Made by a program: the position numbers and the translations under genes. From the IMG/VR virus record IMGVR_UViG_3300020042_006673, positions 953-64,952 of that record: a stretch of 64,000 nt of DNA; one strand, given 5' to 3'. This document shows positions 3,912 to 58,968 of the stretch, in pieces (position 1 is the stretch's first letter; every line of letters starts with the position of its first letter). The notes below the pieces were generated by a model, which saw only the letters and a program-made list of their open reading frames with translations, ran no database searches and had not been told where the DNA came from. This stretch comes from a virus (taxonomy: Duplodnaviria; Caudoviricetes).

Positions 3912-4199
3912 ATGGCCCTCGTACTGCAGCACCAAACGCGGGATCAATTCCTGTTACGCTTTTGGAAAAAAGCCAAAGCCGCTTTCGATGCCGGCGACAA
4001 AGCCACGTATCACTATTTGATCTGGTGGGTTTGGGATAAGGTGCAAACCGGTGACGTGACCGTGCTGCAAGTGCGAACTGCGTACAACACAGCTTTAAGC
4101 AAAACCCTAAACGCTACGCAATTCACGAACTTGGTGAACACGCGATTTGTCCCGATCAAAGATCGTTACCTGTTAATGTTGGAGGAAACCGAAGTATGA
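3912..4199 (+). CDS. Hypothetical protein (GC-richer cassette)
   Basis: AAGGA RBS, 95 aa. Confidence 0.6.
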   Translation: MALVLQHQTRDQFLLRFWKKAKAAFDAGDKATYHYLIWWVWDKVQTGDVTVLQVRTAYNTALSKTLNATQFTNLVNTRFVPIKDRYLLMLEETEV

Positions 4200-4408
4200 G
4201 CATAGTCACCAGTCAAATCACTAGACAGCGCAACGATGGCGGCGTGTTATTCGTCGAGGAGACGCATATCGACGATCTGGGCAAGGTACATATTCTTCGG
4301 CGGCGTGTACCAGTGGACTATGCCAACTTAGCCACGGATATGGTAACTCACGCCGCTGAGATGAATATTGCCTTGGCAGAGGCCGAAGCACAAGAGGTGC
4401 TCGCATGA
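4196..4408 (+). CDS. Hypothetical protein
   Basis: ATGA-coupled on both sides, 70 aa. Confidence 0.55.
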   Translation: MSIVTSQITRQRNDGGVLFVEETHIDDLGKVHILRRRVPVDYANLATDMVTHAAEMNIALAEAEAQEVLA

Positions 4409-5727
4409 CAATTTATTATGTGCGCCCGACAATCGGCTCAGATGCAAACGGTGGTACAAGTTGGGCCTCCGATTCGTGGGCTACGCTCAAGAAAGCTACG
4501 GATACCGTAACTGCTGGCGATCACACTATTATCATGGACAACGCCAATGCTGACGTGATAACAGCAAACCCAACGACTTACACGATTGCTGCTGGTGTAA
4601 AGATCATGTCCTCCAATAACGGCGCAGCGTATGCAACTGGGGCAACGGTTAGCTCGGTAACGGCTGGGCTAGACATAAATATCGCAGGCACATGTTACAT
4701 TTTCGGACTTAGCTTCAAACCCGGAACAACGCTCGGTGCAAATTTAGCCCTGGCATCTAGTGATAACTCGGTTCAATATTTTGAGGATTGCACCTTCCAG
4801 TTAACATCAAATTCGACAAGTAATATTTACACAGGAACGAATTCTGTTCGAGGCAATTGCATTGTTCGCACTAGAAATTGCACGTGGTTATTTGGAACTA
4901 CAGGTAGCAATATCGCGTTAGGTTCTACTCTGGAATCTATTGGGGATTCTTTTGCGCCAACTGGTTCAGTTCCGACCACGCTTTTTAGCGATGGTAGTTA
5001 TGCGAACAGGCTTGATATAACTGGCGCAAACCTTAGCACCATTAGCGGAACTTTATGCTATGGCTTTGGCACGATGCCTCTACAAATACGCATATCAAAC
5101 AGCTTACTCCACGCCTCAGTAACACCATTAGGTAGCATAACAAATCTTGGCGGTACGGAGATTTTTATCAACGATTGCAGTTATATGAACGGCGCAACGC
5201 TGACCGGGATATTGTTTTACCACGAGGACTATCTAGGTAGCACCACGATCAGTACCGCGATTTACAACAGCACCAGCGGACTGACGATTGACGGAACAAC
5301 CAAAGTAAGTTGGGTGGTGGATGGCAAGACGACTGCTAGTTACTCGCAACCTTACCAGTCTCCCTGGATTGAACAATACAACAGCGGCGTGGCACCGGTT
5401 ACGCCACGGCTGGAAGTGATTCGTGACGGTAGTACAACTGCTTATACCGATGAGCAGGTATGGGCGGAGTTCGCATTCAGGGGAACGCCTGACAGCCCGA
5501 AATTAACATTGAATGTATCCGACCGGCGCGGCCCGTTATCGAGCGCGGCAAATCAGGGAACGAGCGCTCTAACTACATCCGATTGGGTAGGGGATACCAC
5601 AGCTTGGTTCGGTAAACTGGAGCCATCCGGCACGATCACACCCGCCGAAGTCGGATATATGCGAGCGAGAGTCTGTGTTGCCGGTGACTACACCGTGCAC
5701 GTTGATCCGCAGATATTGGGGGTGTGA
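4405..5727 (+). CDS. Putative fibre/spike protein, parallel beta-helix-like
   Basis: N-terminal TIYYVRPTIGSDANGGTSWASDSWATLKKA is typical of beta-helix virion appendage proteins; Thr/Ser/Gly/Asn-rich. Confidence 0.6.
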   Translation: MTIYYVRPTIGSDANGGTSWASDSWATLKKATDTVTAGDHTIIMDNANADVITANPTTYTIAAGVKIMSSNNGAAYATGATVSSVTAGLDINIAGTCYIFGLSFKPGTTLGANLALASSDNSVQYFEDCTFQLTSNSTSNIYTGTNSVRGNCIVRTRNCTWLFGTTGSNIALGSTLESIGDSFAPTGSVPTTLFSDGSYANRLDITGANLSTISGTLCYGFGTMPLQIRISNSLLHASVTPLGSITNLGGTEIFINDCSYMNGATLTGILFYHEDYLGSTTISTAIYNSTSGLTIDGTTKVSWVVDGKTTASYSQPYQSPWIEQYNSGVAPVTPRLEVIRDGSTTAYTDEQVWAEFAFRGTPDSPKLTLNVSDRRGPLSSAANQGTSALTTSDWVGDTTAWFGKLEPSGTITPAEVGYMRARVCVAGDYTVHVDPQILGV

Positions 5728-6755
5728 TGGCGAGCCGTAATCGTCCTGCGGGAAGTTCCTGGGTAGTCGAGACCGGTACGAGGAATAGAGCGGTTGGCAC
5801 AGGTTGGGTACGTGAGATAGTAAGTGTGGGACAGCAGACTCATTCGGTAGCGACCACGAGTCTTACGCAAACTAATACGGTCACGTCGTGTGTAGTCCAA
5901 CAGACACATGTACTGTCCCTAGCAAGTGCTACTCAAGCTAATCAAGCATCTGCCGGTTCTATCACGAATTCAGTACTCTTGGTAACTTCCGATGTTTCAC
6001 AGACAAATGCAGTATCAAGTGCAGTTATACAACAAACTGCACAGATATCTGTAGCTCATGTATCGCAAGCTAACCAGAATACTTCTTGTGCTATAAAACA
6101 GACACATTTAGCAGGAGTAACATCCGCTACTCAAAGTAACCAAGTCTCATCAGGTTCGGTATCTGTTAATAGTGCATTTTATGTAAGTATTGCTAATGCA
6201 ACACAAATCGGACAAGTGTCATCGGCAGGTATACAACAAACTGCTTTATTGACGCCAACAAACAGCTTACAAGCTAATACAAGTGTAGCATCGGCAATTA
6301 GCCAGACTTGTTTGTTATCGGCTGCTAACTCTAGTAATGCAATACAAGTATCTAGGGCTGCGGTCGGTTCTTCTACGATGTTTGTGGTAGCAAACGCTAA
6401 TCAGCTGAACATTGGAAGCTATGCAGCTGTTAAACAGATACATAACATAGGTGTTAGAAGTCTAGCTGTAGCCAACCATCTGACTGGCCCTGCTATTAAC
6501 CAGACTCACTTACTTGCAGGTTTAAACGTAAGGGTGTTGAATCAGGTGTTGCCAGTTTCTTGGGCATATCAGGCCTCTTTGTCAAGCACTGATTTGTTAG
6601 CCATAGCAGCAGCCGTTAGATTAGAGTTAGCGCCTGAGCTTGCATTAATCCTATCGACTCTGGCTGGTGGTATTGCTAAATCGAATGTTAAATATGTAAA
6701 CGATGTCCAAGTCTCTGGTACAGGTTCTCCTGGCAATGAGTGGGGACCTTCATAA
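5727..6755 (+). CDS. Repeat-rich putative virion fibre/decoration protein
   Basis: About 22-aa QTxxL...QxN repeats; C-terminal VNDVQVSGTGSPGNEWGPS. Confidence 0.6.
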   Translation: MASRNRPAGSSWVVETGTRNRAVGTGWVREIVSVGQQTHSVATTSLTQTNTVTSCVVQQTHVLSLASATQANQASAGSITNSVLLVTSDVSQTNAVSSAVIQQTAQISVAHVSQANQNTSCAIKQTHLAGVTSATQSNQVSSGSVSVNSAFYVSIANATQIGQVSSAGIQQTALLTPTNSLQANTSVASAISQTCLLSAANSSNAIQVSRAAVGSSTMFVVANANQLNIGSYAAVKQIHNIGVRSLAVANHLTGPAINQTHLLAGLNVRVLNQVLPVSWAYQASLSSTDLLAIAAAVRLELAPELALILSTLAGGIAKSNVKYVNDVQVSGTGSPGNEWGPS

Positions 6756-6896: not shown

Positions 6897-7235
6897 ATGA
6901 TTAATGCACCACAAAAACCTAGCTCTACTGAATCAACTAGAACGCTACCTATCGAGAGTACTGCTGAATTAATTACTTCTAATACTGAAGCTACCGAAGC
7001 TGTTGTAGCTACCGAAGCTGTTGTAGCTACCGAAGCTGTTGTAGCTACCGAAGCTGTTAAAGTGACTGTTGCTTCTGTTGCAAATACGAATGGGTATAGT
7101 CATCCTGCTAATTTTGTACCAGCAAATTGGGATATTGTACCACATCCATTGGGCATCGAAGCAACCAATACGCTAGCACAAAGCAGCTTTATTGGGAGCA
7201 TGTCGGATTTTAATGAAATGCTTAGAGGTAAATAA
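6897..7235 (+). CDS. Hypothetical protein with ATEAVV repeats
   Basis: AAGGA RBS, directly upstream of portal. Confidence 0.65.
   Translation: MINAPQKPSSTESTRTLPIESTAELITSNTEATEAVVATEAVVATEAVVATEAVKVTVASVANTNGYSHPANFVPANWDIVPHPLGIEATNTLAQSSFIGSMSDFNEMLRGK
6990..7058 (+). repeat. 18-bp tandem repeat, about 3.8 copies
   Basis: GCTACCGAAGCTGTTGTA at 6990, 7008 and 7026, partial at 7044. Confidence 0.95.
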
Positions 7236-8806
7236 TGTCTGTACAAAATGCTGTCCAACCTGAGAAGACTGTATCAGATCCAACAGCTTCCTATGAGTCT
7301 ATCAAACCTTTATGGGATAGAAGTAGAGCTGTCTGTAGTGGAGAGCGTTTTGTTAAGGATTATGATAATACGCTTGATACTCTGCACTTCTCGAATCTTC
7401 TGATTCCTTTTTCTCCAACTATGACATCTTCTCAGTATGAGTTTTATAAAGCTGAAGCTGAGTTACCGGGAATATCTGCACAATTCGGTAAGATGCTTGT
7501 TGGTGGATTGCTTAGAAAGAAACCTATTTTGAAGTTACCAGAAAGTGTCCCTAAAGACGGACTTAACTGGATAATGAATAACTTTGGTCAAGATGATGCA
7601 TCTCTCGCTGCCTTCTTAGATACTGCTCTTTGGGAAGAAATTCAAACAAGTAGAGCTTGGATCTACGTAGATTACCCTCGTGTACTTAATGCTGAACAGC
7701 TAACCCCAGAAGAGACTGAAGGACTGAAGCCGTATCCGATACTATGGCCTGCAGAAAATGTTATTAATTGGCGTACTAAGCTTAATTCAAAAGGTCAACG
7801 GGTCTTATCACAAATAGTAGTTAGGATATATGAAGAGTCATTCGCTAGGAATGAGTTTCATCCCGATCTTGTCGATACTGTTTATGTGCACGAGCTTGAC
7901 AATAATGAGCAATATCAGATTCGTAAATATCAAAAGGAAGTGCTTGAAGTTGCAATTCCAGTAATCAATGGTAAGAAGCAATCCAATACGAAAACTAATA
8001 AAGAGGTCTTCGTATTAAAAGAGACCAACACAAACATTCTAATGAATGGTGAACGCCTGTCAATTATCCCTGCTTGGCCTCTAAATGGTTCGATTGAAGT
8101 TATTGAACCGATGCTTACGCCAATCATTGACCGCGAGATTGCTCTTTACAATAAGATCAGTAGACGTAATCATCTGTTGTATGGTGCTTCTACTTATACT
8201 CCAGTTATTACATCTGACATGTCTGACGAAGACTTCGATGATATTGTGTCTGCAGGTCTTGGATCCTGGTTGCGATTAAAACAAGGTGACACGGCTACTG
8301 TTCTAGAAACCCCTACTGGCGCTTTGGCTGATATGGATCGAGCTATTGCTAGTACAGTAGAAGATATGGCTAAACTTGGTATTAGGATGTTGAGCCCTGA
8401 GACTGCACAATCAGGCGTAGCCTTAGATCTAAGGAACGCAGCACAGACAGCTCAACTAGGAACTTTTAATGTAAAGACCAGTAGTACGATGGCCGATGTC
8501 ATTGCTTTCATGCTGAAATGGCGGTATGATCTTGACATTAAGCCGGCTGATATTACATTTAGCTTAAGCGCTGACTTTAATCCGTCTCCTCTAGGCGAGA
8601 ACTGGTTAAGACTTATCACTGAATGGTATGAAGGTGGGCTTATTCCACGTTCTATTTGGATTGATATTCTAAAACACAATGATATTGTTCCTCCTGAGTA
8701 TAATGACGAGGTTGGTAGACAGGAAATTACTGAGAACGCATCGGAGACGATTGCTTCTAAAAATTTAGACTTTAAGAAGAACCTGGATTTAGAATCTAAT
8801 AACTAG
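7235..8806 (+). CDS. Portal protein (DUF4055-like)
   Basis: 523 aa between TerL region and MuF gene; motifs WDRSRAVCSGE, PYPILWPAENVINW, GLIPRSIWIDILK. Confidence 0.85.
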   Translation: MSVQNAVQPEKTVSDPTASYESIKPLWDRSRAVCSGERFVKDYDNTLDTLHFSNLLIPFSPTMTSSQYEFYKAEAELPGISAQFGKMLVGGLLRKKPILKLPESVPKDGLNWIMNNFGQDDASLAAFLDTALWEEIQTSRAWIYVDYPRVLNAEQLTPEETEGLKPYPILWPAENVINWRTKLNSKGQRVLSQIVVRIYEESFARNEFHPDLVDTVYVHELDNNEQYQIRKYQKEVLEVAIPVINGKKQSNTKTNKEVFVLKETNTNILMNGERLSIIPAWPLNGSIEVIEPMLTPIIDREIALYNKISRRNHLLYGASTYTPVITSDMSDEDFDDIVSAGLGSWLRLKQGDTATVLETPTGALADMDRAIASTVEDMAKLGIRMLSPETAQSGVALDLRNAAQTAQLGTFNVKTSSTMADVIAFMLKWRYDLDIKPADITFSLSADFNPSPLGENWLRLITEWYEGGLIPRSIWIDILKHNDIVPPEYNDEVGRQEITENASETIASKNLDFKKNLDLESNN

Positions 8807-8843: not shown

Positions 8844-11800
8844 ATGGCTGATAATGTAAATACTGCAATCTACGATACCCGTGTTGATCGTGCAGCAATG
8901 CTACGGTTGTTTGAAAGACGAGTGCAAGGTAAGGTTGAATTAGTGTTGAATGGTCATGCTGTTCGCACAGACGAGCTGATACGTGCTGCTAACCAATCTA
9001 ATAAAGGCTTTTTGGCATTAAGAGAGGCAATCGATGAGGACCTTCGAAATACCTATCGAGAGGTATATCAAGTCTCATCGAAGTCTCTCATTGATCTTGT
9101 AGGTGATCAGGTCTCTTACACGTATCAAGTATTGGATAATGCTATTGGTAAATTATGGAGAACAGAACGTCCTGGTCGTAGAGTTGCTGAAGAGTTGGTT
9201 TTAAATAAGCCACTACATGCTAATACCACATTAGCACAAGGTTGGTCAAATATTAGTGTTGGAGAAAGACGTAGACTAGAGAATATAATTCGGAAGGGAA
9301 TCGCGGATGGCAGTAGCGTAGAAGATATTGCTTTAATGGTAAGACGTGGAAATGTCCATAAGATTAGTCTACGACAATCTCAAGCTTTGGTTATCACATC
9401 CATCACCAGTGTAACAGCACAAGCCGATCATGAAGTGTATACAGCTAATAAGGATTCGCTTACGGGATGGCAATATGTTGCAGTGTTAGATAGCAGGACT
9501 ACTGATATTTGTGCGCATCGTGATGGTACTATTTATCCAATTGAAGACACTGAACATCTACCACCTGCTCATTTCCATTGCAGATCGACTACAATACCTA
9601 TTGTAAAGTCTTGGGATGACTTAGACAAGCTTGAAGGTGTGGCTCAAGTAAGACGTAGAAATCTTTCAGGTCTTAGTGCAAAACAAAAAGCATACTATGA
9701 CGGTCAGACACCCTTAAAAGAATCTTACGATCAATGGCTACGTAGACAGCCTACTGAGGTCCAGTTAAGACACCTTGGCGATACTCAGAAACTAGAGATA
9801 TTTAGATCAGGTCAACTTACATTAGATAAGTTTACTAATGCTGAAGGCAACTCTGTTGGTATTAGAGAGCTTTCAGCTATGACTATCCCAACTGTATCTG
9901 GAGATACTCGTAGGTTTGCCTTAGCTAAAGAGAAATTAGATACCATAAAGGTAGGTGCATCGACACCTGATGACTTTATTGGTGACACTGACTTGACTAA
10001 AGCCTTAAGTGAGTATTATGTACTACAAGCTGGTGAACTAAACGGTACCTTGTCTTTGACTAATTATCGTGGAGCTTTACTCCATAATAAGAAAGCAACA
10101 AAAGCTAGGGTATTGAGCACTTTACCTACTGAAGCTAATACTAGATTTAATCCTATAACAGGTCGTTATGAAGATACTCGTATATATCAACCCTCGCCTA
10201 TCACTCTAGAGAATACTCAGAGGTTAGTTAGAGAGAGTGAAGATTTATTGCCTAGAGATAAAGAGTTTATAACTAACTTTATTGATAGTTTAGAGTCTAA
10301 GATAAGTGTTAACGAACGTGCTGTGATATCTGAAAACCTTCGAATCCTTTTTACTAGGTATCGTAAGAATGGTGAAGTCTGGACTAACTTCAAAGCTGTG
10401 GCACAAAGCCAAATTAAGTTTGATATTGCAAACGTTTCAGACTACATTGAAACACAGATACGTAAAGATGCACATTTATTGCCTAAACTACTTCAAGATA
10501 ATTATATAGATCCTGTACTCGGTCCTGTTCAATTAGACGATCTTAGTAAGAACTTTATTAAAAATATTAAGGCAAAGAACAAGTGGGAAGATGCGGTAGC
10601 ACCTAAGATTGCTAAAGAGCTACGTGGATTCTTAGATTTAAATATTCCTATTAAGATAAGGTCTAGATTAAATGATAATTCATTACAAGAATTTTACCTA
10701 AAGTTTGCACATCGGTTAGCACTTGCAGATTCCCCTGATAGGGATCAGTTGGCAGTAGCTCTAGGTAGAGACCTCTACAACTTAGCTAATTATCGTGGTT
10801 CTCGAAACGAATGGTTCAACCTAGGAATTAAAATTCTAGAAAAAGCTGAGAAGAAAGGTTTTTACAAGTTAGAGACCTTTGGTACTCAAAAAAGACGTTT
10901 GAAAAGTAGGCTAGGCGGTAATTACTTTGGCCCATACTACGACACTTTTGCCGTGAACTTACGAATCACTGATCCTAGGATTCAAGAATACTCAAGGTTA
11001 ACTCGTAGTGTAGAGCTAGGACTTCGTGTAGCTGTCACCGATGCGAAGAATAGACTAGTCTTTAGGAAGGGCTATAAAACCTATTGGATAGATCGTGGTA
11101 TACTAGGCTATGAAGATACTCGAATCCCGATCACATCTACTGGCAGCTTCGGTGATTTTCCGACTGATCTTATTGATGATGATCTTGTTGACGCCTTAGA
11201 TTGGGCCTCAAAAGCTGAGTATAAGGTAGATCCTGATTTCTATGACTTTGCTACTAAGCTTTTAAAATTTGAAGATGATAAAGGTCGTGCTAAGTATTAT
11301 CATGGATTGAATCAATACAGGGCACACTTGCTGGAGCGTGGTGACTCTTATGAGCGATTGAAGGCTTTGGAGTGGCTACGCAATAGTGGCAAATCCTTCA
11401 GTAATCATCCTTTTTTAGATCATCGTGCTAGGATATATGATAGAGGTTTGATTGGGCCACAGTCTGGTGAAACCTTTAGACCTTTCTTAAGTACAGCTGA
11501 AGCTAAGAACTTTAGTGCTGAAGACTTCTTTAATTTACAAGATCAGATAGGCTCTTTCTTAGGCGGATTGAACGATTACTTTGAAGGCTTTAATAATTCA
11601 CTATCTATCTTAGGTCGTCAAAAGATCGCAGAGAAGTGGCGTAAGGATTTAGTTGAGATTGGTAATCATATTCGTCGTGGTAAACCTAACGATATTAGGG
11701 CTGTATTAGAGTCTAACTTATTGTCTAGGATTGATGGTGAAGATCAGGGAAAAGCCTTGCGATTGGCACTAGAGGTATCAAAAATTGACGAGTTCCTCCA

Positions 11801-14190
11801 GGGCAACTACTCCAAGGCGAACCTCGTTAAATTAAAGGAGTATAGAACCTCACTTGCCTTAGAGCAAGACGCATCCTCCTCTGGTGCACAGATAATTGCG
11901 TTAACCACAAAGAATAAGCAATTAGCTGAGTTGAGTAATGTAGTTCCTACGAATTATAAAAGAAGACTTTATGATGAGATTGCTGCATCTACTTTTAGAG
12001 ACCCTCGATTTATCAAACTAAATCAAAAGTTAGGGCTTACTGAGAAAGATTTAAGAAAGGCTGCAAAAGCTCAGAACTTAGTTACCTTTTATGGTGCAGG
12101 TGAACGTACCGGCATTATAAATGTTGAAGCTAAACTTTCTAAAGCATTAGGCAAGAACGAAGGTCTTCTTGTAGTAAAAGCATCTGACAGAGACACTGTA
12201 CTGTCTGAGATCGCTGCTAGAGCGGCACGTTATGAGAAGTTTGATAAAGAGACGTATCTTGAACTTAAAGCTCTTAGACAAGACGTTAAAGAGATTTTTA
12301 ATAAAGGTATAACTCCTGGTGATGATATTATCGAACAACTTTATTTTTTAGATCCTAAGACTCGAGAGTTGGTTGAAAAATTAACTAAGCAATATGATAC
12401 AGTTGTTACACCAGACGACTTTAAAGAGATTGCACAAATCTTTAGCGAAAACTTAAGGGTTCAAGTTCCTATTTTGAGAGACTTTACCAGGTTCTTTGGA
12501 AGACTTGCCGAAGATTTCCTTTCAAATGCCAAGCCGAGTCAATCTGATTTTGATTGGCCGGCTTTGATAAAGACTCAAATTAGAGGTACTAGAAAATCTG
12601 GTTATAGGCTTCCTAAAGCTATTAGTCGAATATTAGGACTTAAGGATGAACCGCTTTCAGAGAAATTCTTAAAACGAATCCCTGGATGGAATCCTGATGG
12701 TACTTTGTCAGAACTGCTATATGGTATAAGAGCACCTGAAGCAAGACGTACGGGCACTACTTTGTTCGGTATAAGCCCATTGCAATTGAAGACTTTAGGT
12801 GAGCTTGAAGTATTTACCCCTAACAAGTTACCTAAAAATTGGCCTAACGTTCCTTGGGTCAACTTTGACGGTAAAATTATTGAACAGAATTTTACACAAG
12901 TCTTTGAAGAGAAGTTAGTATATCTTGATAAAGATGGTCATCGAGTTATCAATATTCTCCAAGTTCCACAAAAGACTGATCCTACTTTCTGGGAAGAGTT
13001 AATTAACAAATCCGGAAAGATTAATGATATTGCTGATGTGAATAAAGCTAGGACTGCCTTTGCAGTTAACGGTGAAATCTGATTGCCGTTGTAAAATTCC
13101 GTGAATTCGGTGGATAACCTTAGGGTCAATACCGAGCCAAGCTTTGAGAGAACTCTCTTAGAAGGTGTAACGACTATTATGTAGGGCACAAGTGTGCTCG
13201 AAGCGCGGAACAGTGAAAACTGAAGATATAGTCTGATCTATATAGTAATATATAGCTGTTAATTATGGAGAGTATTAATGAAATTAGAACGCCTAAGGGC
13301 CCTTTTCTATTGCAAAGATGGTAAATGTTATAATCGCATCTCACGAGGTTCAGCTAAGAAAGACTTAGAGGCCGGTTATATAGCAGAGGATGGTTATAGA
13401 CGAGTTAGAATAGATGGTAGCTATCATTATATACATAGGGTGGTATGGATGCTTTCAACAGGAAAGGCGATTCCTGATGATTTGTTCATTGACCATATTG
13501 ATGGTAACAAACTCAACAATTCCATACAAAATCTAAGACTAGCGTCCTCCCTTGAAAATCAGTATAATAAATTTAGACAAACCAATGGCAGTAGCCAGTT
13601 TAAAGGTGTTTGGTTTGATTCTAAGAAAGACTGTTGGAAGGCTTCAATTCGTTTAAAAGATCGACGATTCTATATAGGTCAATTTAACACAGAAATTGAA
13701 GCTGCTATTGCCTATGATAAACTTGCAATAGAAACTCAAGGTACGTTTGCCAAACTCAATATTTTAACGGGGTTGCCTAACGAACAACCCGAACAAAACG
13801 AATCATTCCAACGATGCAACACTCGTTAAGCAGTTCCATTTATGGGGTAAGAAAAACGGTGTACCTACCTCTACTATCCATGATGCGTTCTTTACGAATG
13901 CATCCGAGATGGTTAGGGCTAGAAATGCACTAAGACAGCTTTATGCAAATACCTTGAAACGTAATGTAATCAAGTCTACCTTAGACGAGATGCGTAGCCG
14001 AGGTTTGCCCAAAGAACTTTATAATAAATACTTAGAAGAAGCTATCGCGATAGGCCTGATTCCTGTTCCAGGCAAGTCTATTGTAGGTGGCCGTGTATTA
14101 ACTGAAAAAGATATTTTAACAGATGCCGATATCTTAGCTAATATTCCTGAAGGTTTCAAGAATAATTATGCATGGTACGGTGTCAATTAA
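8844..14190 (+). CDS. MuF/SPP1-gp7 head morphogenesis domain fused to a T7-like single-subunit RNA polymerase; spliced join(8844..13073,13801..14190), 1539 aa
   Basis: N-terminal MuF motifs WQYVAVLDSRTTDIC and PPAHFHCRST. RNAP motifs DHRARIY (aa 859), A EQDASSSG (D1009), B RKAAKAQNLVTFYG (K1075, Y1083); after splicing, AVNG^NHSNDATL and motif C TIHDAFF (D1438). Exon 2 is in frame with track ORF 13909..14190. Confidence 0.9.
13074..13800 (+). ncRNA. Group I self-splicing intron (IA-like), 727 nt
   Basis: 5' exon ends in U, paired with IGS GCCGUU 13085-90; P10 UGAUU/AAUCA; P3 13097-103/13204-10; P4 13107-12/13130-35; P7 GACUA 13172-76/UAGUC 13229-33; J8/7 GAAGAUAUAGUC; P8 CAGU-GAAA-ACUG; P9 13238-55; terminal G 13800. 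Confidence 0.93.
13278..13829 (+). mobile_element. Intron-encoded HNH-AP2 homing endonuclease
   Basis: HRVVW...IDHIDGNKLNNSIQNLR (HNH_3 type) plus AP2 domain SQFKGVWFD...WKASI...GQFNTEIEAAIAYD; GGAG RBS; lies in the intron P9 region. Confidence 0.9.
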
Positions 14191-14237
14191 TTGGACCGTG
14201 TCCACAATTTAAATAGGCTGTGCCTAAAGGAAAAGAA

Positions 14238-14930
14238 ATGCCATTAACCCCTGAAGAAATTGCTGCAAAAGAAGCTGAAGATGCTTTGAAGAAGGCTGAA
14301 GAAGATGCGAAAGCATTGTCTGATGCTCAGAAAGCTGGCAATCAAGAGCTTATTGATAAGCTGGTTGCAGACAAGGTTGCAGAACAAGTTGCATCTCTCA
14401 AGACTAAACTTGACAGTGCATACGAGGCAAGAGATAAAGCTTTACAAGAAGCCGCTATCTTGAGACAAAAAGAAAAAGAAGCAGAGTTAGAGCGTTTGAA
14501 AGCTGATGGAAAGCATAAGGAAGCTTATGAGTTACAATTGGCGGAAGAACGTGCTACTAACGAAGCACTTAAGAAGCGAAATACTGAACTGACACGAGAT
14601 GTTAACGTACGTGACGCTATGAAGGCGTACTCTTTCAGAAGTGATAAAGCAGCAGAAATGGCATTTCATGAAGTTGCCAATCAACTGACACAGGATGAAA
14701 AGGGTGTATGGGTACATCGCAGTGGTATTTCGATAAGCGATTTTGTAAAGTTGTTCGCTGAGAACAAAGATAATGCCTTTTTGTTCAAAACTAAAGCTAA
14801 TACCGGTGGCGGCTCTAGTGAAAGTGGGGATGGTAGTCTCGACAATACACAAAAACCAACGTCCTTATTTAAGCTCTCACAAAAAGAAGTTCTAGAGATG
14901 GCTGAAAAAGGACAAATTAAAAGAAAGTAA
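14238..14930 (+). CDS. Capsid scaffolding protein
   Basis: Glu/Lys/Ala coiled-coil directly upstream of MCP; AAGGA RBS before ATG 14238. Confidence 0.8.
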   Translation: MPLTPEEIAAKEAEDALKKAEEDAKALSDAQKAGNQELIDKLVADKVAEQVASLKTKLDSAYEARDKALQEAAILRQKEKEAELERLKADGKHKEAYELQLAEERATNEALKKRNTELTRDVNVRDAMKAYSFRSDKAAEMAFHEVANQLTQDEKGVWVHRSGISISDFVKLFAENKDNAFLFKTKANTGGGSSESGDGSLDNTQKPTSLFKLSQKEVLEMAEKGQIKRK

Positions 14931-14934
14931 TTAA

Positions 14935-16122
14935 ATGCCTTTACGTACTAATGTCACCGGTGCTACTAACTACGCACTGCAAGAAGCTATTGGCGGTTAT
15001 TCTGACGAAGCTTACACGACTGCTAAGAAACTGTCGGGTACTGCACTTGTCAGTCCTAACCCTGAAATCCAGACTGACGGTGAAACCTTTATTGGTCAAA
15101 TGCGTTGGTTCAAACCATTGACGCCTGTTGTTAACGTGGCATCTTTGACTGATTCCTCGAACGGTACGCCTACTACTTACGGCTCTGAGTATTTGACCTA
15201 CATCAAAACTGTGCGTACGCATGGTGCTGAGAAAGTCAATATGCAGAAAGTTGTGACTCAGGATGACGGTCTGGCTAAAATTGGTCGTGACTTTGCTGAA
15301 ACCCGCAACCAAGACGAACACAATGCAATTCTGTCCGTGTTGAAGGGTGTTGCACTGGCTGAAGTTCTCAATGGTGCAGCCGCTGCTTCTGGTGCTACTG
15401 GTCTGGGTGGCCAAACGTTCACCAATGACGACACGGATAAGAAATACGGTTTCTATGTCGATCTGGGTGCAGCTTTGCCTGTTATCGCTGCTTCGGCTTC
15501 TGTGCAAGGTGCGGCTCGTGCTGAGGGCTTCTTGCAAGCTATCGGCATGGCGTGGAAAGATTACGAGCCAGAGTATGCTTATCTGGTAACCAGCCCTGAA
15601 GTTATGGCATCTTTGCGTTCGGCTAATCTGGTCGAGGATGAAGGTGTTGTTGAGGGCAATGTTACCTTTAATACCATCTTCGGTGGCAAATTCCGTTTGA
15701 TTCAGACTCGTGCTTCTCAAGGCTTTAGTTCGGCTGAGCGTACTAAGATCAATACGGGTGCTGGTGTTGACTTGGTTGGTACTAAGTGTTCCTATGTTGT
15801 ACTCCCTGGTGCAATTGCAATGGAACAAGTTGCGATTGACGATTCGGTTGAGATTTATCGTGACGGTCGTGCTTATAAAGGTGGCGGTTCTACGAATATC
15901 TGGTATCGTTGGGGTTATGTGGCGCATCCGGCTGGCTATAATTGGGCTGGTAGTGCTGATGCATTCCCTGCTGATGCTGATTTCTACAAAGCAGTTGAAG
16001 GTGGTTCGCCATTGGCTCTGGGCTCTGTTGTGTCCGGCACCCTGGCTTCCACCACTGGTACTTGGATTCGTAAAGCGAATTCTGCATTGAATCTGGGCAT
16101 CTTGCCGATTTTCCACAGCTAA
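14935..16122 (+). CDS. Major capsid protein
   Basis: 395 aa after scaffold; strongly biased, highly-expressed-type codons; motifs MRWFKPL, WYRWGYVAHP. Confidence 0.85.
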   Translation: MPLRTNVTGATNYALQEAIGGYSDEAYTTAKKLSGTALVSPNPEIQTDGETFIGQMRWFKPLTPVVNVASLTDSSNGTPTTYGSEYLTYIKTVRTHGAEKVNMQKVVTQDDGLAKIGRDFAETRNQDEHNAILSVLKGVALAEVLNGAAAASGATGLGGQTFTNDDTDKKYGFYVDLGAALPVIAASASVQGAARAEGFLQAIGMAWKDYEPEYAYLVTSPEVMASLRSANLVEDEGVVEGNVTFNTIFGGKFRLIQTRASQGFSSAERTKINTGAGVDLVGTKCSYVVLPGAIAMEQVAIDDSVEIYRDGRAYKGGGSTNIWYRWGYVAHPAGYNWAGSADAFPADADFYKAVEGGSPLALGSVVSGTLASTTGTWIRKANSALNLGILPIFHS

Positions 16123-32939: not shown

Positions 32940-32958
32940 CTCGACCCCGTTAAATTAA
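32940..32958 (+). promoter_or_regulatory. Motif B copy 1 (CTCGACCCCGTTAAATTAA), candidate phage-RNAP promoter
   Basis: Exact 19-bp repeat of 54974-54992; intergenic, upstream of the lysis cassette. Confidence 0.5.
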
Positions 32959-33598: not shown

Positions 33599-34159
33599 AT
33601 GCTAACATCATTGATTACTTTACTAGGTGGCGGCCTTGGTGGTCTATTACGATTTGTCCCTGAAATATTTAAATTTTTCAATGACAAAGGCGATAGAGCA
33701 CATGAGCTTGAGATGACTAAACTGCAATTAGACATCGACAAAGCTAGGGCTACACAAGCCATCGATTTTGTAAGAGCTAATTCTGAAGCAGAGCTTGCAA
33801 AGGTCTCAGTGGAAGCTCAAGGTCGAATTGCTGATAGTGAAATGAAAGCATTGGCTGAAGCTTTAAAATCTCAGAGTAAAATGACTGGAGTAGCTTGGAT
33901 TGATGGTTTAAATCAATCAGTCAGACCAATCATAACATACTGGTGGATGGCCTTATTGACTGTTTATAAAGGTGTACTTGTTATTGTAGCCACTATTGAG
34001 CTATTCGCCGTATTGAAAATTGCAAATGGTATGGCGACTTCTGCTCCAGCTTTATTGGCTTTTGCTGATAAGTTGTGGACACCTCAAGACGCTGGTATAT
34101 TAGCAATGATCTTAGGTTTCTGGTTCGTGGATCGGTCATTGAAACATCAGGTAAGATAA
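33599..34159 (+). CDS. Holin (3TM-type)
   Basis: SLITLLGGGLGGLLRFVP start, SVRPIITYWW, ILGFWFVDRS end; directly before the endolysin. Confidence 0.8.
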   Translation: MLTSLITLLGGGLGGLLRFVPEIFKFFNDKGDRAHELEMTKLQLDIDKARATQAIDFVRANSEAELAKVSVEAQGRIADSEMKALAEALKSQSKMTGVAWIDGLNQSVRPIITYWWMALLTVYKGVLVIVATIELFAVLKIANGMATSAPALLAFADKLWTPQDAGILAMILGFWFVDRSLKHQVR

Positions 34160-34161
34160 TC

Positions 34162-34581
34162 ATGGATCTTATGACGTTATATGTCCTGATACGTAGATTT
34201 GAGGGCTTACGATTAAAGGCTTATTTATGTCCGGCAGGTATTTGGACTTGTGGTTATGGCTCTACTGGCCCTGATGTGAAGCCTGGAGTGGAATGGACGT
34301 TGGAGTACGCAGAAACACGTATGAAGGCGGATGCTTCTCGTTTTGCATTGGGAACTTTGCGGTTGTGTCCTACGTTAGGAGGTGACAATCTATCTGCTAT
34401 TGCAGACTTTGCGTATAACCTAGGGCTTACTCGATTAGCTAGTTCTACACTTCTACGTAAACTTAAAAAAGGTAATACCGAAGGTGCAAGAGTTGAGTTG
34501 CATAAGTGGGTATATGGAGGTGGTAAGAAATTACCAGGTCTTGTTATCCGAAGAGCGATTGAAGCTAGTTTATTGAAATAA
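34162..34581 (+). CDS. Endolysin, GH24 lysozyme
   Basis: IRRFEGLRLKAYLCPAGIWTCGYG (E-x8-C-x5-T triad), FAYNLG, KWVYGGGKKLPGLVIRR; start moved from track 34075. Confidence 0.93.
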   Translation: MDLMTLYVLIRRFEGLRLKAYLCPAGIWTCGYGSTGPDVKPGVEWTLEYAETRMKADASRFALGTLRLCPTLGGDNLSAIADFAYNLGLTRLASSTLLRKLKKGNTEGARVELHKWVYGGGKKLPGLVIRRAIEASLLK

Positions 34582-34619: not shown

Positions 34620-34644
34620 GCGAATTTCTTGGTATCTTATATGA
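34614..34644 (+). promoter_or_regulatory. Motif A copy 1, candidate early promoter
   Basis: TTTTTTGCGAATTTCTTGGTATCTTATATGA, identical to 35048-35078. Confidence 0.65.
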
Positions 34645-35047: not shown

Positions 35048-35078
35048 TTTTTTGCGAATTTCTTGGTATCTTATATGA
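35048..35078 (+). promoter_or_regulatory. Motif A copy 2
   Basis: Exact 31-bp repeat of 34614-34644, 20 nt upstream of ATG 35098. Confidence 0.65.
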
Positions 35079-35097: not shown

Positions 35098-35640
35098 ATG
35101 AAAGCTATTTTACGATTTGCAGTAATTTGTGTAGTAGTTTATGGGTTAACTTTGTTACCTTCGCCGGCGCCTCGAGTCGAAGTTAAGCCAGTAGTAGAAT
35201 ACGAAATTGTGCCGGAGGAAACACCTGCAAAAGTGCCGACTAAGGTCTCTGCTGACAAAGAAATACATTGTTTAGCAGATGCTATTTACCATGAAGCTAG
35301 AGGTGAGGGTATTGAAGGGATGTCGGCAGTAGCATCTGTTATTATGAACAGGGTCAAAGATAGACGATGGCCTAACTCTGTTTGTAAAGTAGTTTACCAA
35401 AAGGGGCAATTTGAAGCACTGTTCCTTTGGAAGCCCGCTGACGAATCACATGCTTACAACAGAGCGCATCGTATAGCAAGGCTATTCTACTATAACAAAG
35501 GTGTAGATAAGACAGACGGTAGTTTATTTTTTAGAACTTTTAAAGTAGCCGACGCTGATGGGATTGTCATTGGTAATCATATCTTTCATAAAGAGTACAA
35601 GTATGCGGCAGTTCATGTTGCTAATAAGGAGTCTGAATGA
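35098..35640 (+). CDS. Cell wall hydrolase, SleB/Hydrolase_2 family
   Basis: CLADAIYHEARGE...AVASVIMNRV...WPNSVCKVVYQKGQF...IGNHIF; N-terminal signal/TM. Confidence 0.9.
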   Translation: MKAILRFAVICVVVYGLTLLPSPAPRVEVKPVVEYEIVPEETPAKVPTKVSADKEIHCLADAIYHEARGEGIEGMSAVASVIMNRVKDRRWPNSVCKVVYQKGQFEALFLWKPADESHAYNRAHRIARLFYYNKGVDKTDGSLFFRTFKVADADGIVIGNHIFHKEYKYAAVHVANKESE

Positions 35641-36541: not shown

Positions 36542-36568
36542 TTGCGGGTTTTCAGGTATCTTATATGA
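36542..36568 (+). promoter_or_regulatory. Motif A copy 3
   Basis: TTGCG-GGTTTTCA-GGTATCTTATATGA; same 8-nt spacer as copies 1 and 2. Confidence 0.6.
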
Positions 36569-37578: not shown

Positions 37579-37630
37579 GTCCATCCCTTCGGGGATGGGC
37601 TTTCTTTCTTCTTTCTTTTATTTTTTTTTT
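37579..37630 (+). terminator. Strong intrinsic terminator
   Basis: GTCCATCCC-TTCG-GGGATGGGC followed by a ~30-nt T-rich tract. Confidence 0.9.
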
Positions 37631-37809: not shown

Positions 37810-40074
37810 ATGAGACAAAATTTAATTGATTCACTCACCCGCAGGTATGTAAGAGAGCTTGTTGTTCAAAACCCTGTTAGCTTTATTAAAGAGTATAAGC
37901 CTGAGGACTATATCGATGCTGTTACCTCTATTGTGTACTTATACACAAGAGCGGGCAAAGGCCGTGATAAAAAGCTTATACAATTCTCAGAAGTGATTTC
38001 CGCCATAGGTCATGCTATACGTACAAAGTATAAGCTTAAACGTGATTCTGCGTTATCTGCTAAACTCGGAGCTTTCCTTTTATATAGCTTTCAGGAGCTG
38101 GGGATGATACAAGTTAGTCTGGAGAAGGCGCCTAATGGACATAACGTATATGGAATTACAGTAACTAATGAGGATGCTCTAGGTAAACTATGGAATGTTA
38201 TTGATGAGTCTGTGACTGAAAAACTACCATCTCTAACACCGTACCCTGATTGGTTATCTGGCAAACAACCAAATGGAACATCCCTTGTTAAGACTAACTC
38301 TAAAGATGTTATATCTAGTCTATCTCCAGAAACACATCCTATTGTATTTAATTGTGTGAACAGAGCGCAAAAGGTCGGTTGGATGGTAAATGCAGCTGTA
38401 TATGAAATATATACATGGGCTTTAAGGAATAAGGCTGATGCCTTCCACGAAATATGGGAAATGCAGAGTCAAGAGGCTAAGACATCGAAGCTTAGAGAAG
38501 CCAAGGCCATAGGTACGATTGCGAAGAGATTCATGGGTAAGATCTTCTACCATCTGTATTACTTAGATTTCCGTGGAAGAAAATATCCTGCAACTGCATA
38601 TTTTCATGAACAGGGAACTGATCTCGCAAAAGGTCTATTGTTAAGAGCAGATTCTAAACCTATAACGGAGCAGGGCTACTATTGGTTATTAATATCTATT
38701 GCCTCGAATTGGGCTGGCGATGCCGGTAGAGAAGACCAAGCAAAGACTGATAAAATACCATTAAATGACCGAGTATATTGGGCAGAGGATAATGAAGAGA
38801 TTTTGATGTCATACGCCGTAAATCCTAAAGTTAACCAAGGTTGGATGCGTGCTGATAAGCCTTGGCAATTTCTAGCTGCATGTATGGAATGGCATAAAGC
38901 AAAATCTTGGGTTATTACTGCTAATTTTGGTAGAGTGTTACAAGGGCTTCCTCCCCTTACAATATATGACTATGTGTCTCACCTTGAATGTTATATAGAT
39001 GGTTCTACAAATGGAAGTCAACATTTAGCAGCGTTAATGCGCGATGAAGTGACTGCACCATATGTCAATCTCATACCACAAGAACTTCCTGGAGATTTAT
39101 ATCGATATGTTGCAGAGCATGTTTGGCATAAATTGGATAAAATAACTTCCAAACTTTCATCAGAACAATCTAAGGCTTGTAATGAGATTATCGATAATTT
39201 AAAAGATATTAAAAAGCAAATATCCGATACACCAGAACGTTCGGATCGTAGAAAAGAAGCTTATGCTGAAATGATTTTGTATAAAGAAGATCATAAAGAC
39301 TCTTTTGAGCTTGCTGCTCCTGTTTTTTGGAATAGAATTAAGGATGCTAAAGAGAGAAGGAAGATTGTAAAAAGGGGTGTCATGACGCTACCTTATGGTG
39401 GAACTGCTTACGGGTTAGGTCAACAGGTTATCGATGATTCACGTAAACATGGCATTGATCTGTTACTTTATGGTGAACATAAATGGAGCAGTTATATGGG
39501 GAAACTTATCTTCGATGATTGTCGAGAAAGTTTGAAACGACCTATGAGACTGTTAAGTATATTTGAAAGTGTCGGTAAGAAAGCAGAAGCTGATGGCAAG
39601 TTTTTAAAATGGTCATTGCCGTTGACTAATTTTCCTGTAGTTCAACATTATGTGGAAGGTAAGGTTAGAAAAATATATGTTCAGTATGGCCCACAGGATG
39701 GATATAGAGACAGCTCGGGCTATTACGAAAACACCTTTCAGGTAAATATCTGTTTCATTGAAGATACTAAACCTAGTAAAAAGAAGCAATCACAAGCTGC
39801 CGCACCTAACGCTATACACAGCTTAGATGCAGCACATCTTATGCTTGCATGCAGTCGAACGGAGTTCCCTGTGACAACAATTCATGATAGCTTTGGGTGT
39901 TTATTATCTGAGATGCCTGAGCTGTTCGTTGTTATAAGAGAAACATTCGTAGAGTTGTATAATCAAAATCCTTTAAAGGTATTATTGGAGGATATGGGAG
40001 GCTCATTGGATGGAATTGAAATGGGTAATTTAGATATTAGCCTAATTTTAGACAGTGAATACGCTTTTAGCTAA
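37810..40074 (+). CDS. T7-like single-subunit DNA-directed RNA polymerase (RNAP2)
   Basis: YYLDFRGRKYP, motif A YIDGSTNGSQH, motif B RKIVKRGVMTLPYG, APNAIHSLDAAHL, motif C TIHDSFG. Confidence 0.97.
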   Translation: MRQNLIDSLTRRYVRELVVQNPVSFIKEYKPEDYIDAVTSIVYLYTRAGKGRDKKLIQFSEVISAIGHAIRTKYKLKRDSALSAKLGAFLLYSFQELGMIQVSLEKAPNGHNVYGITVTNEDALGKLWNVIDESVTEKLPSLTPYPDWLSGKQPNGTSLVKTNSKDVISSLSPETHPIVFNCVNRAQKVGWMVNAAVYEIYTWALRNKADAFHEIWEMQSQEAKTSKLREAKAIGTIAKRFMGKIFYHLYYLDFRGRKYPATAYFHEQGTDLAKGLLLRADSKPITEQGYYWLLISIASNWAGDAGREDQAKTDKIPLNDRVYWAEDNEEILMSYAVNPKVNQGWMRADKPWQFLAACMEWHKAKSWVITANFGRVLQGLPPLTIYDYVSHLECYIDGSTNGSQHLAALMRDEVTAPYVNLIPQELPGDLYRYVAEHVWHKLDKITSKLSSEQSKACNEIIDNLKDIKKQISDTPERSDRRKEAYAEMILYKEDHKDSFELAAPVFWNRIKDAKERRKIVKRGVMTLPYGGTAYGLGQQVIDDSRKHGIDLLLYGEHKWSSYMGKLIFDDCRESLKRPMRLLSIFESVGKKAEADGKFLKWSLPLTNFPVVQHYVEGKVRKIYVQYGPQDGYRDSSGYYENTFQVNICFIEDTKPSKKKQSQAAAPNAIHSLDAAHLMLACSRTEFPVTTIHDSFGCLLSEMPELFVVIRETFVELYNQNPLKVLLEDMGGSLDGIEMGNLDISLILDSEYAFS

Positions 40075-46241: not shown

Positions 46242-46787
46242 ATGTTTGACCCATCTAAATTTAAAGCACCAGCTTTTGTTGCTACTGTACCTGAAAATAA
46301 AGTTGTAAGCAAAACTATTATCAAACGCGTTTCACTAGAAGGTGTTGTAGGCTCTAGAGTGGACCGACGTGATTACAGAGGTAATGGTCATTGGGATTTC
46401 CCAACAGATATGGGTGTATCTAATGCAATCGGTTTTATATATGTTATACGTAATAATATTACAGGTCGAGCTTACATCGGTAAAAAGTTTTACAAAGGCA
46501 CAGGTAAGTTAAATAAAGGTCAGAGCACTAATTGGGCATGGTACATTAGTAGTAGTAAAGAGCTTTCTGAAGATGTAAAGACTTTAGGTAAAGAGAACTT
46601 CTCATTCTTTTGTATTGAGGAATATGCTACGAAAGGTTCTCTATCTTGGGCAGAAACTTGGAGTATATGCCATGTAAGAGCGCCAGAATTTCAAGATAAA
46701 TGGTACAATCTATTAATTAATAAAGTTTCCTGGAAGGTTAAAGCAGGAATAACACAACGACACTTAACGCGATTAGGAGAATTCTAA
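46242..46787 (+). CDS. GIY-YIG (Seg-like) endonuclease
   Basis: GFIYVIRNNITGRAYIGKK...WYISSS...YN. Confidence 0.8.
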   Translation: MFDPSKFKAPAFVATVPENKVVSKTIIKRVSLEGVVGSRVDRRDYRGNGHWDFPTDMGVSNAIGFIYVIRNNITGRAYIGKKFYKGTGKLNKGQSTNWAWYISSSKELSEDVKTLGKENFSFFCIEEYATKGSLSWAETWSICHVRAPEFQDKWYNLLINKVSWKVKAGITQRHLTRLGEF

Positions 46788-48892: not shown

Positions 48893-49324
48893 GTGAATAA
48901 GTACGGTATATCGAAATGGGATGTAAGGTTTATGGAAATGGCCAAGGTAATTGCTACATGGTCTAAAGATCCTGCTAAACCAGTCGGAGCGCTTATCACT
49001 ACACCACGTAATACTATTGTGAGTTTAGGATTTAATGGCTACCCTGCAGGTATTCCAGATAATCCAAACGACATTCGAGAAATTAAGTTACTGAGAACTA
49101 TTCATGCTGAAGAGAATGCTATTTTATTTGCTATGCGAGATTTGTCAGGGCATTCTATATATGTCACACATGACCCATGTGCTAATTGTGCTGCTAAGAT
49201 AATTCAAGTAGGAATCACATCAGTATATTCAGGAAAGGAAATGGTAAATAAATGGAGCATTTCAAGTAATGAGGGTAAGTCGATGTTTAAAGAAGCTGGT
49301 GTGGCCTTCATAACGATGTACTAA
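48893..49324 (+). CDS. dCMP deaminase
   Basis: WSKDPAKPVGA, GFNGYP, IHAEENAI, THDPCANCA Zn motif. Confidence 0.92.
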   Translation: MNKYGISKWDVRFMEMAKVIATWSKDPAKPVGALITTPRNTIVSLGFNGYPAGIPDNPNDIREIKLLRTIHAEENAILFAMRDLSGHSIYVTHDPCANCAAKIIQVGITSVYSGKEMVNKWSISSNEGKSMFKEAGVAFITMY

Positions 49325-54973: not shown

Positions 54974-54992
54974 CTCGACCCCGTTAAATTAA
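54974..54992 (+). promoter_or_regulatory. Motif B copy 2 (CTCGACCCCGTTAAATTAA)
   Basis: Exact repeat of 32940-32958; upstream of the codon-biased gene 55142. Confidence 0.5.
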
Positions 54993-58297: not shown

Positions 58298-58944
58298 GGG
58301 CCTGTAGCTCAGTGGTAAGAGCAAGCGACTCATTAAGGCGTAGTGATACGTTATTGTGCACCACCGAAAAATGCATTGGTAGTCAGAAAGATACACCTTA
58401 AGTATCCTCCTAATATGACATGTAACTGGAGCATATTGCTGGCGTAACAGTACAACCGAAAGGCGGTAAAGTAATAAGTAGACAAAAATTATCTGTATCG
58501 ACAATAGCCGGAGTTTGCATTAAATGTGAGAGTGAGACTCACATGTCTTCCGGATACTTATTAGGTGAATTTTCTCAAAGTCGGCGAACGCTAAAGAATA
58601 TAGGAAAGCCAGAGGCTTCGTAATTCCTATTCTAATACTAGGCTGTAAGTATTGGATGCTGCCAACGCCGAGCCAAACCTGTCGAAAGACCAACAAAATG
58701 CTGTATGAGTAGGATGTACAGAGGAAGGTGTAGAGACTGTATGGGAAATACCTAAGTCCACAAACCGATGATTCTTTCGAGAAACTAGTTGTTTAGACGA
58801 CAAGGTAAAGACACAGTCCAGACCACGAACATATGCAGTCCTAGAGCGCACCGAGAGCGTGGATAAAAGTCTAGGCATATGGCGTCGAAAGACGAAGTGG
58901 TACGAATCGCCTGGTCATAGGTTCAAATCCTATCAGGCCCACCA
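58298..58944 (+). tRNA. tRNA-Ile2(CAU), split: exons 58298-58333 and 58905-58944
   Basis: Joined exons give a 76-nt cloverleaf GGGCCTG...CTCATAA...CAGGCCC-A-CCA, very similar to E. coli ileX; has the C4:G69/C5:G68 pairs used by TilS. Confidence 0.9.
58334..58904 (+). ncRNA. Group I intron (Azoarcus/IC3-like core), 571 nt, no ORF
   Basis: Inserted 3' of anticodon CAU; P1 UCAU/GUGA 58343-46; P3 58571-77/58742-48; P4 UCGGCG 58581-86/CGCCGA 58666-71; GAAGGUGUAGAGACU; P7 58735-40/58813-18; terminal G 58904. Confidence 0.9.
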
Positions 58945-58968
58945 ATTTATTACATAAAGGAGAAATAA

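Follow-up and report, generated by a model that had tools for sequence, protein, structure and literature searches.

We analysed a stretch of 64,000 nucleotides (nt) of a phage genome, hereafter the window (positions 953 to 64,952 of the IMG/VR virus record IMGVR_UViG_3300020042_006673, a contig of 64,952 bp), in which all genes lie on the + strand, and found that the gene at 8844-14190 encodes a MuF minor head protein, of the SPP1 gp7 type, fused to a T7-type single-subunit RNA polymerase (RNAP). Our analysis suggests that the capsid of this long-tailed phage probably contains a transcription enzyme of the phage's own. The best-supported reading, which we hold to be somewhat probable, is that the fusion protein would be packaged by means of its MuF domain, ejected together with the DNA, engaged in early transcription and then relieved by a second RNAP encoded elsewhere in the same genome. 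An earlier reading, made from the letters of the DNA alone (the sequence-only reading), had proposed such a virion-delivered enzyme. Packaging, ejection, polymerase activity and the pairing of each enzyme with its promoter-like motif are what we infer from the data that follow.

Three raw open reading frames (ORFs) cover the locus, at 8844-13082 (1412 amino acids, aa), 13278-13829 (183 aa) and 13909-14190 (93 aa). The first one ends with ...ARTAFAVNG-EI-stop, and the frame that is open over 13768-14190 reads ...NHSNDATLVKQFHLWGKKNGVPTSTIHDAFF... and contains NHSND...IHDAFF. At the same place, the uninterrupted homologues of 1539-1543 aa read ...ARTAFAVNGNHSNDA..., and alignment to these homologues therefore places the splice between T13073 and A13801 (...AFAVNG|NHSND...). 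The spliced translation is 1539 aa long, has no internal stop, and its ligated ...AFAVNG|NHSND... is identical to that of the uninterrupted homologues. Exon 1 (8844-13073, residues 1-1410) is thus defined by the ORF, the alignment to the uninterrupted homologues and the spliced translation; exon 2 (13801-14190, residues 1411-1539) contains NHSND, motif C with H1437-D1438, and the C-terminus.

The 727-nt interruption (13074-13800) is a group I intron (Rfam RF00028), which splits the conserved VNG|NHSND motif. A complete group I core was detected at 13030-13255 with 69.8 bits, the gathering score being 50. The last six bases of exon 1, AACGGT (13068-13073), are able to form P1 with GCCGTT (13084-13089), with a U.G pair at the cleavage site, U13073 stands at the 5' splice site and G13800 is the last base of the intron; as far as sequence features go, these splice sites are textbook group I. 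The intron holds the ORF of a homing endonuclease of 183 aa (13278-13829) with HNH_3 (PF13392, E 2e-17) and AP2 (PF00847, E 3e-8) domains. This ORF extends 29 nt into exon 2 (13801-13829) in a different frame, so that the 3' splice site lies inside the endonuclease coding sequence. In the MuF-RNAP genes of relatives we counted seven group I introns in six of the eight loci scanned (loci including L054, L038, L019, L042 and L048), and the intron of relative L019 occupies the same site as that of the window gene.

The N-terminal part of the spliced protein, residues ~1-345 (8844-9878), is a MuF domain by PF04233 and by fold. Pfam Phage_Mu_F (PF04233) matched residues 145-251 with an E-value of 4.4e-14 and 53.6 bits (cut-off 29.6), and the MuF motifs LDSRTTDIC and PPAHFHCRST were located at residues 215-223 and 240-249. 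The AlphaFold2 model of residues 1-620 (pLDDT 85) gave 93 matches at E<=1e-3 in BFVD, and those that carry a name are all minor capsid or head morphogenesis proteins or MuF fusions. Ordinary MuF proteins of 340-390 aa matched this model at TMt 0.6-0.79, the value reaching 0.79 with 361-aa proteins. A Foldseek search of the same model against the PDB returned no significant match, and this database yielded no solved structure of a MuF protein. Residues ~346-560 (9879-10520) form a linker domain, helical with two small hairpins and confidently folded, over which some 600-700-aa MuF proteins in BFVD can be aligned.

The neighbourhood of the gene is that of a minor head protein. Directly upstream lies the portal gene (7235-8806; Pfam DUF4055, phrog_145 E 3.5e-50), and downstream are the scaffold gene (14220-14930; phrog_206 E 3e-13) and the major head protein gene (14935-16122; phrog_247 E 3e-15). 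The order portal, MuF-RNAP, scaffold and major head protein, as assigned with PHROGs, is also found in relatives, and the fusion is the only MuF in the window. Both the canonical slot of the gene and the MuF nature of residues ~1-345, which the sequence-only reading had put forward, are thereby borne out by profile and fold matches.

The C-terminal 980 residues (~560-1539) make up, on sequence and model grounds, a complete T7-type RNAP fold. Positions 10521-13073 encode its T7-type N-terminal domain and the larger part of the polymerase domain (residues ~560-1410), an assignment based on a family profile, the fold and invariant columns. Pfam RNA_pol (PF00940) recognised exon 2 alone with 23.8 bits (cut-off 22; E 2.4e-5; profile positions 306-371), and exon 1 alone gave no RNA_pol match, MuF being the only domain found there. 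In the same way, phmmer found no match for exon 1 in the PDB, and its matches among 1.8 billion representatives were other fusions only. As Pfam passes its cut-off on exon 2 only, the identification of the polymerase needed proof by profile and fold.

We built a family profile from 27 diverse full-length members and searched it against the PDB. T7 RNAP was matched with an E-value of 1.6e-22, mitochondrial RNAPs with ~2e-18 and N4 RNAPII with 2e-6, and the mini version of the N4 virion RNAP (mini-vRNAP) was not matched. The profile alignment pairs DHRARIY with DWRGRVY of T7, EQDASSSGAQ with FDGSCSGIQ (D537 of T7), PWVNFDGK with HWVTPDGF, NHSND with VHSQD and IHDAFF with IHDSFG (H811-D812 of T7); the DxRxR element corresponds to D421-R425 of T7. 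In the window protein the catalytic positions are DHRARIY at 859-865, motif A D1009, motif B R1071, K1075 and Y1083-G1084, NHSND at 1411-1415 and motif C H1437-D1438. All the motif residue numbers given in the sequence-only reading are exact in the spliced translation. Its statement that the motifs are correctly spaced holds inside motif B, which is T7-like, and does not hold between motifs: from Y1083 to H1437 there are 354 residues, compared to 172 in T7, i.e. ~180 extra residues between motifs B and C.

The structure was examined on a model of residues 345-1542 of the uninterrupted relative L057 (67% identical), which stands in for the spliced window protein and has a pLDDT of 83.4 and a pTM of 0.77. 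With Foldseek, the top matches of this model were mitochondrial and T7 RNAPs, with E-values of ~1e-17 to 4e-18. With VIA-align, residues 220-1198 of the model superposed on residues 30-883 of T7 RNAP with a Z of 29.3 and a root-mean-square deviation of 3.8 over 529 residues; the linker (model residues 1-219) falls outside this alignment. The Z values were 26 for mitochondrial RNAP, 19 for N4 mini-vRNAP and 12 for full-length N4 gp50. Since the model covers T7 residues 30-883, the fusion holds the N-terminal promoter-binding domain together with the catalytic domain. By these models the fused RNAP is closer to the T7 and mitochondrial enzymes than to that of N4, the one known virion polymerase of the T7 superfamily. 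The polymerase half was thus recovered both by profile (1.6e-22) and by fold, two of the checks that the sequence-only reading had called for.

The RNAP half has intact catalytic residues and is apparently active. We aligned 27 and 47 family sequences, with identities as low as ~20%: D1009, K1075, Y1083 and R863 are invariant columns, R879, K1072 and G1084 are near-invariant, and the aspartates of NHSND and HD are near-invariant among the 27 sequences and fully conserved among the 47. The polymerase domain could also be thought of as a catalytically dead module with a structural or DNA-binding role, given that Pfam RNA_pol barely detects it and that motifs B and C are separated by the additional ~180 residues. 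This is highly improbable in our view: the catalytic aspartates, the Lys and Tyr of motif B and DxRxR are conserved, invariantly or nearly so, over that whole range of divergence, the entire T7 fold is retained (Z 29), and the intron lies within the NHSND motif, which exact splicing restores.

The fusion is not confined to the window. The homologous-protein search gave 375 clusters, more than 100 of which are 63-70% identical, ~1540 aa long and already carry precomputed PF04233 and PF00940 domains, their naming going at most as far as 'SPP1 gp7 family head morphogenesis protein'. At least 567 fusion loci are present in IMG/VR. MuF was found in all 27 diverse members and the Pfam RNA_pol cut-off was passed by 20 of them. 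Among 50,697 phage records the full architecture occurs in four, namely EBPR siphovirus 1, DSS3_VP1 (two records) and DSS3_PM1, where the annotation of the protein reads 'head protein', 'head morphogenesis' or 'minor head protein-like protein'. The fusion of EBPR siphovirus 1 is 57% identical to that of the window and is also interrupted by an HNH gene. Those of the roseophages DSS3_VP1 and DSS3_PM1 (Naomviridae) are 1463 aa long, uninterrupted, 31% identical and occupy the same slot.

In the representative library the polymerase is C-terminal in every full-length match (~1260-2070 aa), the shorter matches look like fragments, and a free-standing copy of this polymerase type did not turn up there. 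T7 RNAP tolerates N-terminal fusions and requires a free C-terminus. The constant C-terminal placement of the polymerase fits this requirement.

A second RNAP gene lies at 37810-40074, in the early/replication region. It encodes a free-standing, canonical T7-like RNAP of 754 aa (phrog_414 E 3.7e-115; Pfam RNA_pol E 2e-67) and adjoins a T7-like replication module with DNA polymerase, exonuclease, primase-helicase and ligase genes. The fused and the second RNAP are alike only around motif A (BLASTP E 0.005), hence they are not recent duplicates of each other. The second enzyme is likely the non-virion partner of the fused one. The two occur together in the close relatives G003, G004, G006, G007 and G009, and also in the distant G005, G015 and DSS3_VP1, in the last of which the second gene bears the annotation 'RNA polymerase'. 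In G006 and G007 the second RNAP gene is likewise split, so that group I introns recur in both polymerase genes. The relative G002, 98% complete according to CheckV, was considered as a natural case lacking both the second RNAP and one of the motifs described below (class 2), and was rejected: the ends of its contig fall at the DNA polymerase (start) and at the homologue of ORF 35098-35640 (end), so that the break lies just where the second RNAP gene is expected, and G002 is for this reason uninformative.

Two classes of promoter-like motif were found in the window. The class-1 motif is the 13-mer GGTATCTTATATG, present in three exact copies, all on the + strand, at 34631-34643, 35065-35077 and 36555-36567, 1.2-3.2 kb upstream of the second RNAP gene; by chance, 0.15 matches with at most one mismatch would be expected in the window. 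With the same tolerance, 1-3 copies are present on the coding strand of G002, G003, G004, G006, G007, G009 and G017, and the reversed pattern, used as a control, gave no match in 20 records. In every genome whose contig includes both features, class 1 precedes the second RNAP gene. Its core is T7-like (CTTATAT|G, where T7 has CACTATA|G) and is preceded by a conserved element, GCG(G/A)A. A sigma-70 promoter was considered for class 1 and rejected, as TTGCGA is only 9-14 nt from any -10-like hexamer and as the upstream element conserved in relatives is CGCGGAAA.

The class-2 motif, ACCCCGTTAAATTAA(CCCT), has two exact copies at 32944-32958 and 54978-54992 (chance expectation 0.03 matches with at most one mismatch). 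In relatives it is present in 2-7 copies, on the coding strand only, before the replication, head and terminase operons. Class 2 is a candidate promoter of the second RNAP; given its palindrome GTTAA-A-TTAAC, it may also be a binding site for a regulator. Our reading, drawn from position alone, is that the enzyme available when infection begins would use class 1, and the second RNAP class 2. In DSS3_VP1 (NC_055826.1) the motif ATAGGKTRCGTTAAAGAGGGG, a candidate promoter set that has the CGTTAAA core in common with class 2, is present in 12 coding-strand copies, at 2250, 2341, 6588, 7416, 19245, 19334, 29404, 45934, 46401, 46559, 55106 and 59204; ahead of the second RNAP gene of this phage, the 35-42.5 kb region showed no few-copy motif resembling class 1. 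Additionally, one class-2 copy with a single mismatch lies at 11821, within the MuF-RNAP gene of the window, and the class-2 copies of relatives are often paired, 110-155 nt apart, the first of the pair then being followed by a CCCC(C)T element.

The presence of class 2 before the head genes of relatives, together with the position of the fusion gene in the late head operon, by which the enzyme is present late in any case, would suit a polymerase that is never delivered: it could be a late intracellular enzyme, for example one that boosts late transcription, it could be removed around assembly, or the fusion could be a mere joining of neighbouring genes, with MuF doing its usual work in the head. 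We consider this unlikely. Hundreds of contigs carry the fusion intact, as do relatives that share as little as about 21-27% identity, the polymerase was met with only as the C-terminal part of full-length representatives and never as a separate protein in the library, and intracellular work is already served by the separate RNAP. Furthermore, the block from the portal to the major head protein contains no prohead protease gene by Pfam or PHROGs.

The delivery of the fused RNAP for early gene expression, which is the reading that we prefer, has to be weighed against several observations. Extended -10 boxes of the host type are found at ~32873, at the start of the early region (TGGTATAAT), and at ~48705 (TGTTATAAT). 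Since these boxes exist, the host RNAP may start transcription, and an independence of the phage from it is not established. A strong hairpin that resembles an intrinsic terminator is located at ~37585-37630, downstream of the last class-1 motif and ahead of the second RNAP gene. Two of the class-1 sites flank the genes of a lysozyme (34075-34581) and of a cell-wall hydrolase (35098-35640), which are not obviously early genes. Finally, a protein of 175 kDa would have to pass through the tail, for which the precedent is N4 and not a MuF cargo. The hairpin itself reads CCATCCC-TTCG-GGGATGG and is followed by a long T run.

These boxes, which are of the extended sigma-70 type, also bear on the possibility that the fusion is packaged for another early step, such as transcription of the leading end that pulls the genome in, or the synthesis of replication primers, with the host RNAP starting transcription. 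Entry of the T7 genome is driven by transcription, in that case by a T7 RNAP inside the cell. SPP1 gp7 binds DNA and affects DNA ejection and infection efficiency, according to Stiege 2003 and Vinga 2006 as cited in PMC5576092. Set against this, the fusion has kept a full T7-type N-terminal promoter-binding domain, and a dedicated, few-copy promoter-like motif is present. We find another early step quite unlikely as the sole function; it is not exclusive of early gene expression, and the two can coexist.

Delivery for early transcription would proceed as follows. The group I intron would be spliced out to yield one MuF-RNAP protein of 1539 aa, produced late together with the head proteins. By homology to SPP1 gp7, its MuF domain would act as a minor head protein, of which one or two copies attach to the portal within the procapsid, and would bring the polymerase into the capsid. 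At the next infection the fusion would exit with the DNA, and its promoter-specific RNAP would begin transcription at a small number of phage-specific promoters, with GGTATCTTATATG as the candidate sequence. Among the genes transcribed first would be that of the second, ordinary T7-like RNAP, which would then read the commoner ACCCCGTTAAATTAA before the replication and structural operons. Of the delivery proposed by the sequence-only reading, the architecture, the sole MuF of the window, the conservation of the fusion, the second RNAP and the promoter-like motif speak in favour; its further claim of a start of transcription independent of the host RNAP does not stand as established, in view of the -10 boxes.

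To our knowledge, virion RNAPs are known only from a few lineages: N4-like, phiKZ-like and crAss-like phages and P23-45. In the same way as N4 gp50 of the Schitoviridae, the fusion is a single-subunit RNAP of the T7 superfamily encoded among late and virion genes, and its phage encodes a second, non-virion T7-like RNAP and has, at least as candidates, few dedicated early promoters, in line with the N4 relay, in which a packaged enzyme opens the infection and then hands over. N4 gp50 is a protein of ~3500 aa with a central polymerase, N-terminal injection and C-terminal encapsidation domains and a metallopeptidase (PMC5512222). The fusion, in contrast, is 1539 aa long, has its polymerase at the C-terminus and MuF as its only other Pfam domain, and belongs to a long-tailed phage; the early promoters of N4 are hairpins, whereas the candidate motif here is linear and T7-like. 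As the family profile misses the N4 mini-vRNAP and the fold resembles that of T7 more closely (Z 29 compared to 19), its origin looks independent of the N4 virion RNAP.

The whole fold, the motifs T/DxxGR, A, B and C and the architecture of the candidate promoter are those of T7 RNAP (gene 1 of the Autographiviridae), and the fold and motifs are also those of the mitochondrial RNAPs. The T7 enzyme, however, is a free early protein, made by the host RNAP and absent from the virion, whereas the polymerase described here is fused behind ~560 residues and is too dissimilar in sequence to be found by single-sequence searches. A parallel in layout is offered by the MuF polymorphic toxins and polyvalent proteins, with an N-terminal PF04233 domain encoded after the portal and a C-terminal enzymatic cargo. 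Such a design for cargo delivery by MuF has been proposed for ADP-ribosyltransferases, RNases, RelA/SpoT and others (PMC5576092; PMC5512222), and each SPP1 capsid contains 1-2 copies of gp7, a portal-binding protein (PMC5576092). Unlike in these fusions, the cargo here is an enzyme for transcribing the genome of the phage itself and not a toxin or a modifier of the host. In Thermus phage P23-45, whose RNAP is fused to the tape measure, in crAss-like phages and in phiKZ, a virion-borne polymerase is likewise paired with a non-virion RNAP; the enzymes described there are of the two-barrel, multisubunit type and reside on the tape measure or are separate virion proteins, whereas here a T7-type, right-hand polymerase resides on MuF.

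The published surveys of MuF toxins (PMC5576092) and of polyvalent proteins, with many MuF cargos (PMC5512222), list no RNAP, and the former does not mention RNA polymerase; according to the latter, virion RNAP modules are confined to N4-like phages. The cultured phages DSS3_VP1 and DSS3_PM1 have the same fusion in the same slot and a second annotated RNAP, and the term 'RNA polymerase' is absent from the papers on the Naomviridae (PMC8323127) and on the enzymes of their deoxyuridine (dU)-containing DNA (PMC12697855), the first of which also lacks the terms 'MuF' and 'head morphogenesis'. No description of a MuF-RNAP fusion was found in the full-text literature searched, which leaves out most subscription journals. 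The design is, apparently, both widespread and undescribed.

Hundreds of database entries called 'head morphogenesis protein' conceal a polymerase, and the family represents a new, highly divergent set of single-subunit RNAPs with candidate promoters. The enzyme is a compact T7-type polymerase joined to the commonest of the portal-associated minor head proteins. If the fusion is packaged, it would be the first MuF cargo that is the phage's own transcription machinery and would support the long-standing, little-tested idea that MuF delivers C-terminal cargo. In its widest form, the proposal is that a T7-type RNAP borne by MuF, as a third and independently evolved route to a virion RNAP, would start a relay of two polymerases and two promoter classes and make these phages largely independent of the host RNAP; for this we see the chances as evenly balanced. 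If true, hundreds of environmental siphophages and the cultured dU-DNA Naomviridae would largely do without the host RNAP. Virion RNAPs are informative on how phages escape from dependence on the host and on how large proteins pass through tails. The idea is directly testable in a cultured pair, DSS3_VP1 and its host Ruegeria pomeroyi DSS-3.

The DNA of DSS3_VP1 and DSS3_PM1 contains dU, whereas most close relatives of the window have no deaminase gene. The window itself has, at 48893-49324, a gene of the deoxycytidine monophosphate (dCMP)/cytidine deaminase family, whose product is 45% identical to a DSS3_VP1 ORF annotated as deoxycytidylate deaminase; the dCMP-deaminase-family enzyme of that phage has been shown to be a deoxycytidine triphosphate deaminase for dU-DNA (PMC12697855). 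This gene hints that the window phage may modify its DNA too. No HD-type deoxythymidine monophosphate phosphatase was seen among the ORFs scanned. A dU-DNA as the explanation for the whole family was rejected, as the deaminase is absent from G002-G005.

A tRNA(CAU)-like gene was found at 58298-58968, with its anticodon loop split by an insertion of ~570 nt. The group I intron model scored 43.8 bits at 58520-58838, below the threshold of 50, and ARAGORN folded the joined halves as a 76-nt tRNA-Met; from these sequence features, the locus would be an intron-bearing phage tRNA gene. A second mobile endonuclease, besides the HNH enzyme, is encoded at 46242-46787 by a free-standing SegE-like GIY-YIG gene, which has the exonuclease gene on one side and the primase-helicase gene on the other. 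The 'direct terminal repeats' of the relative G003 were considered as physical genome ends and rejected, as tail genes span them. A G+C-rich island (49.6% compared to ~40%) extends over 4001-6755, between the terminase and portal genes, and its ORFs 4405-5727 and 5724-6755 have no Pfam or PHROG match. Finally, coding tandem repeats are present at 6986-7075, as 18-nt units in ORF 6897-7235, and at 63478-63723, as GCTGCT-rich units with spacings of 9-39 nt in ORF 63251-63781.

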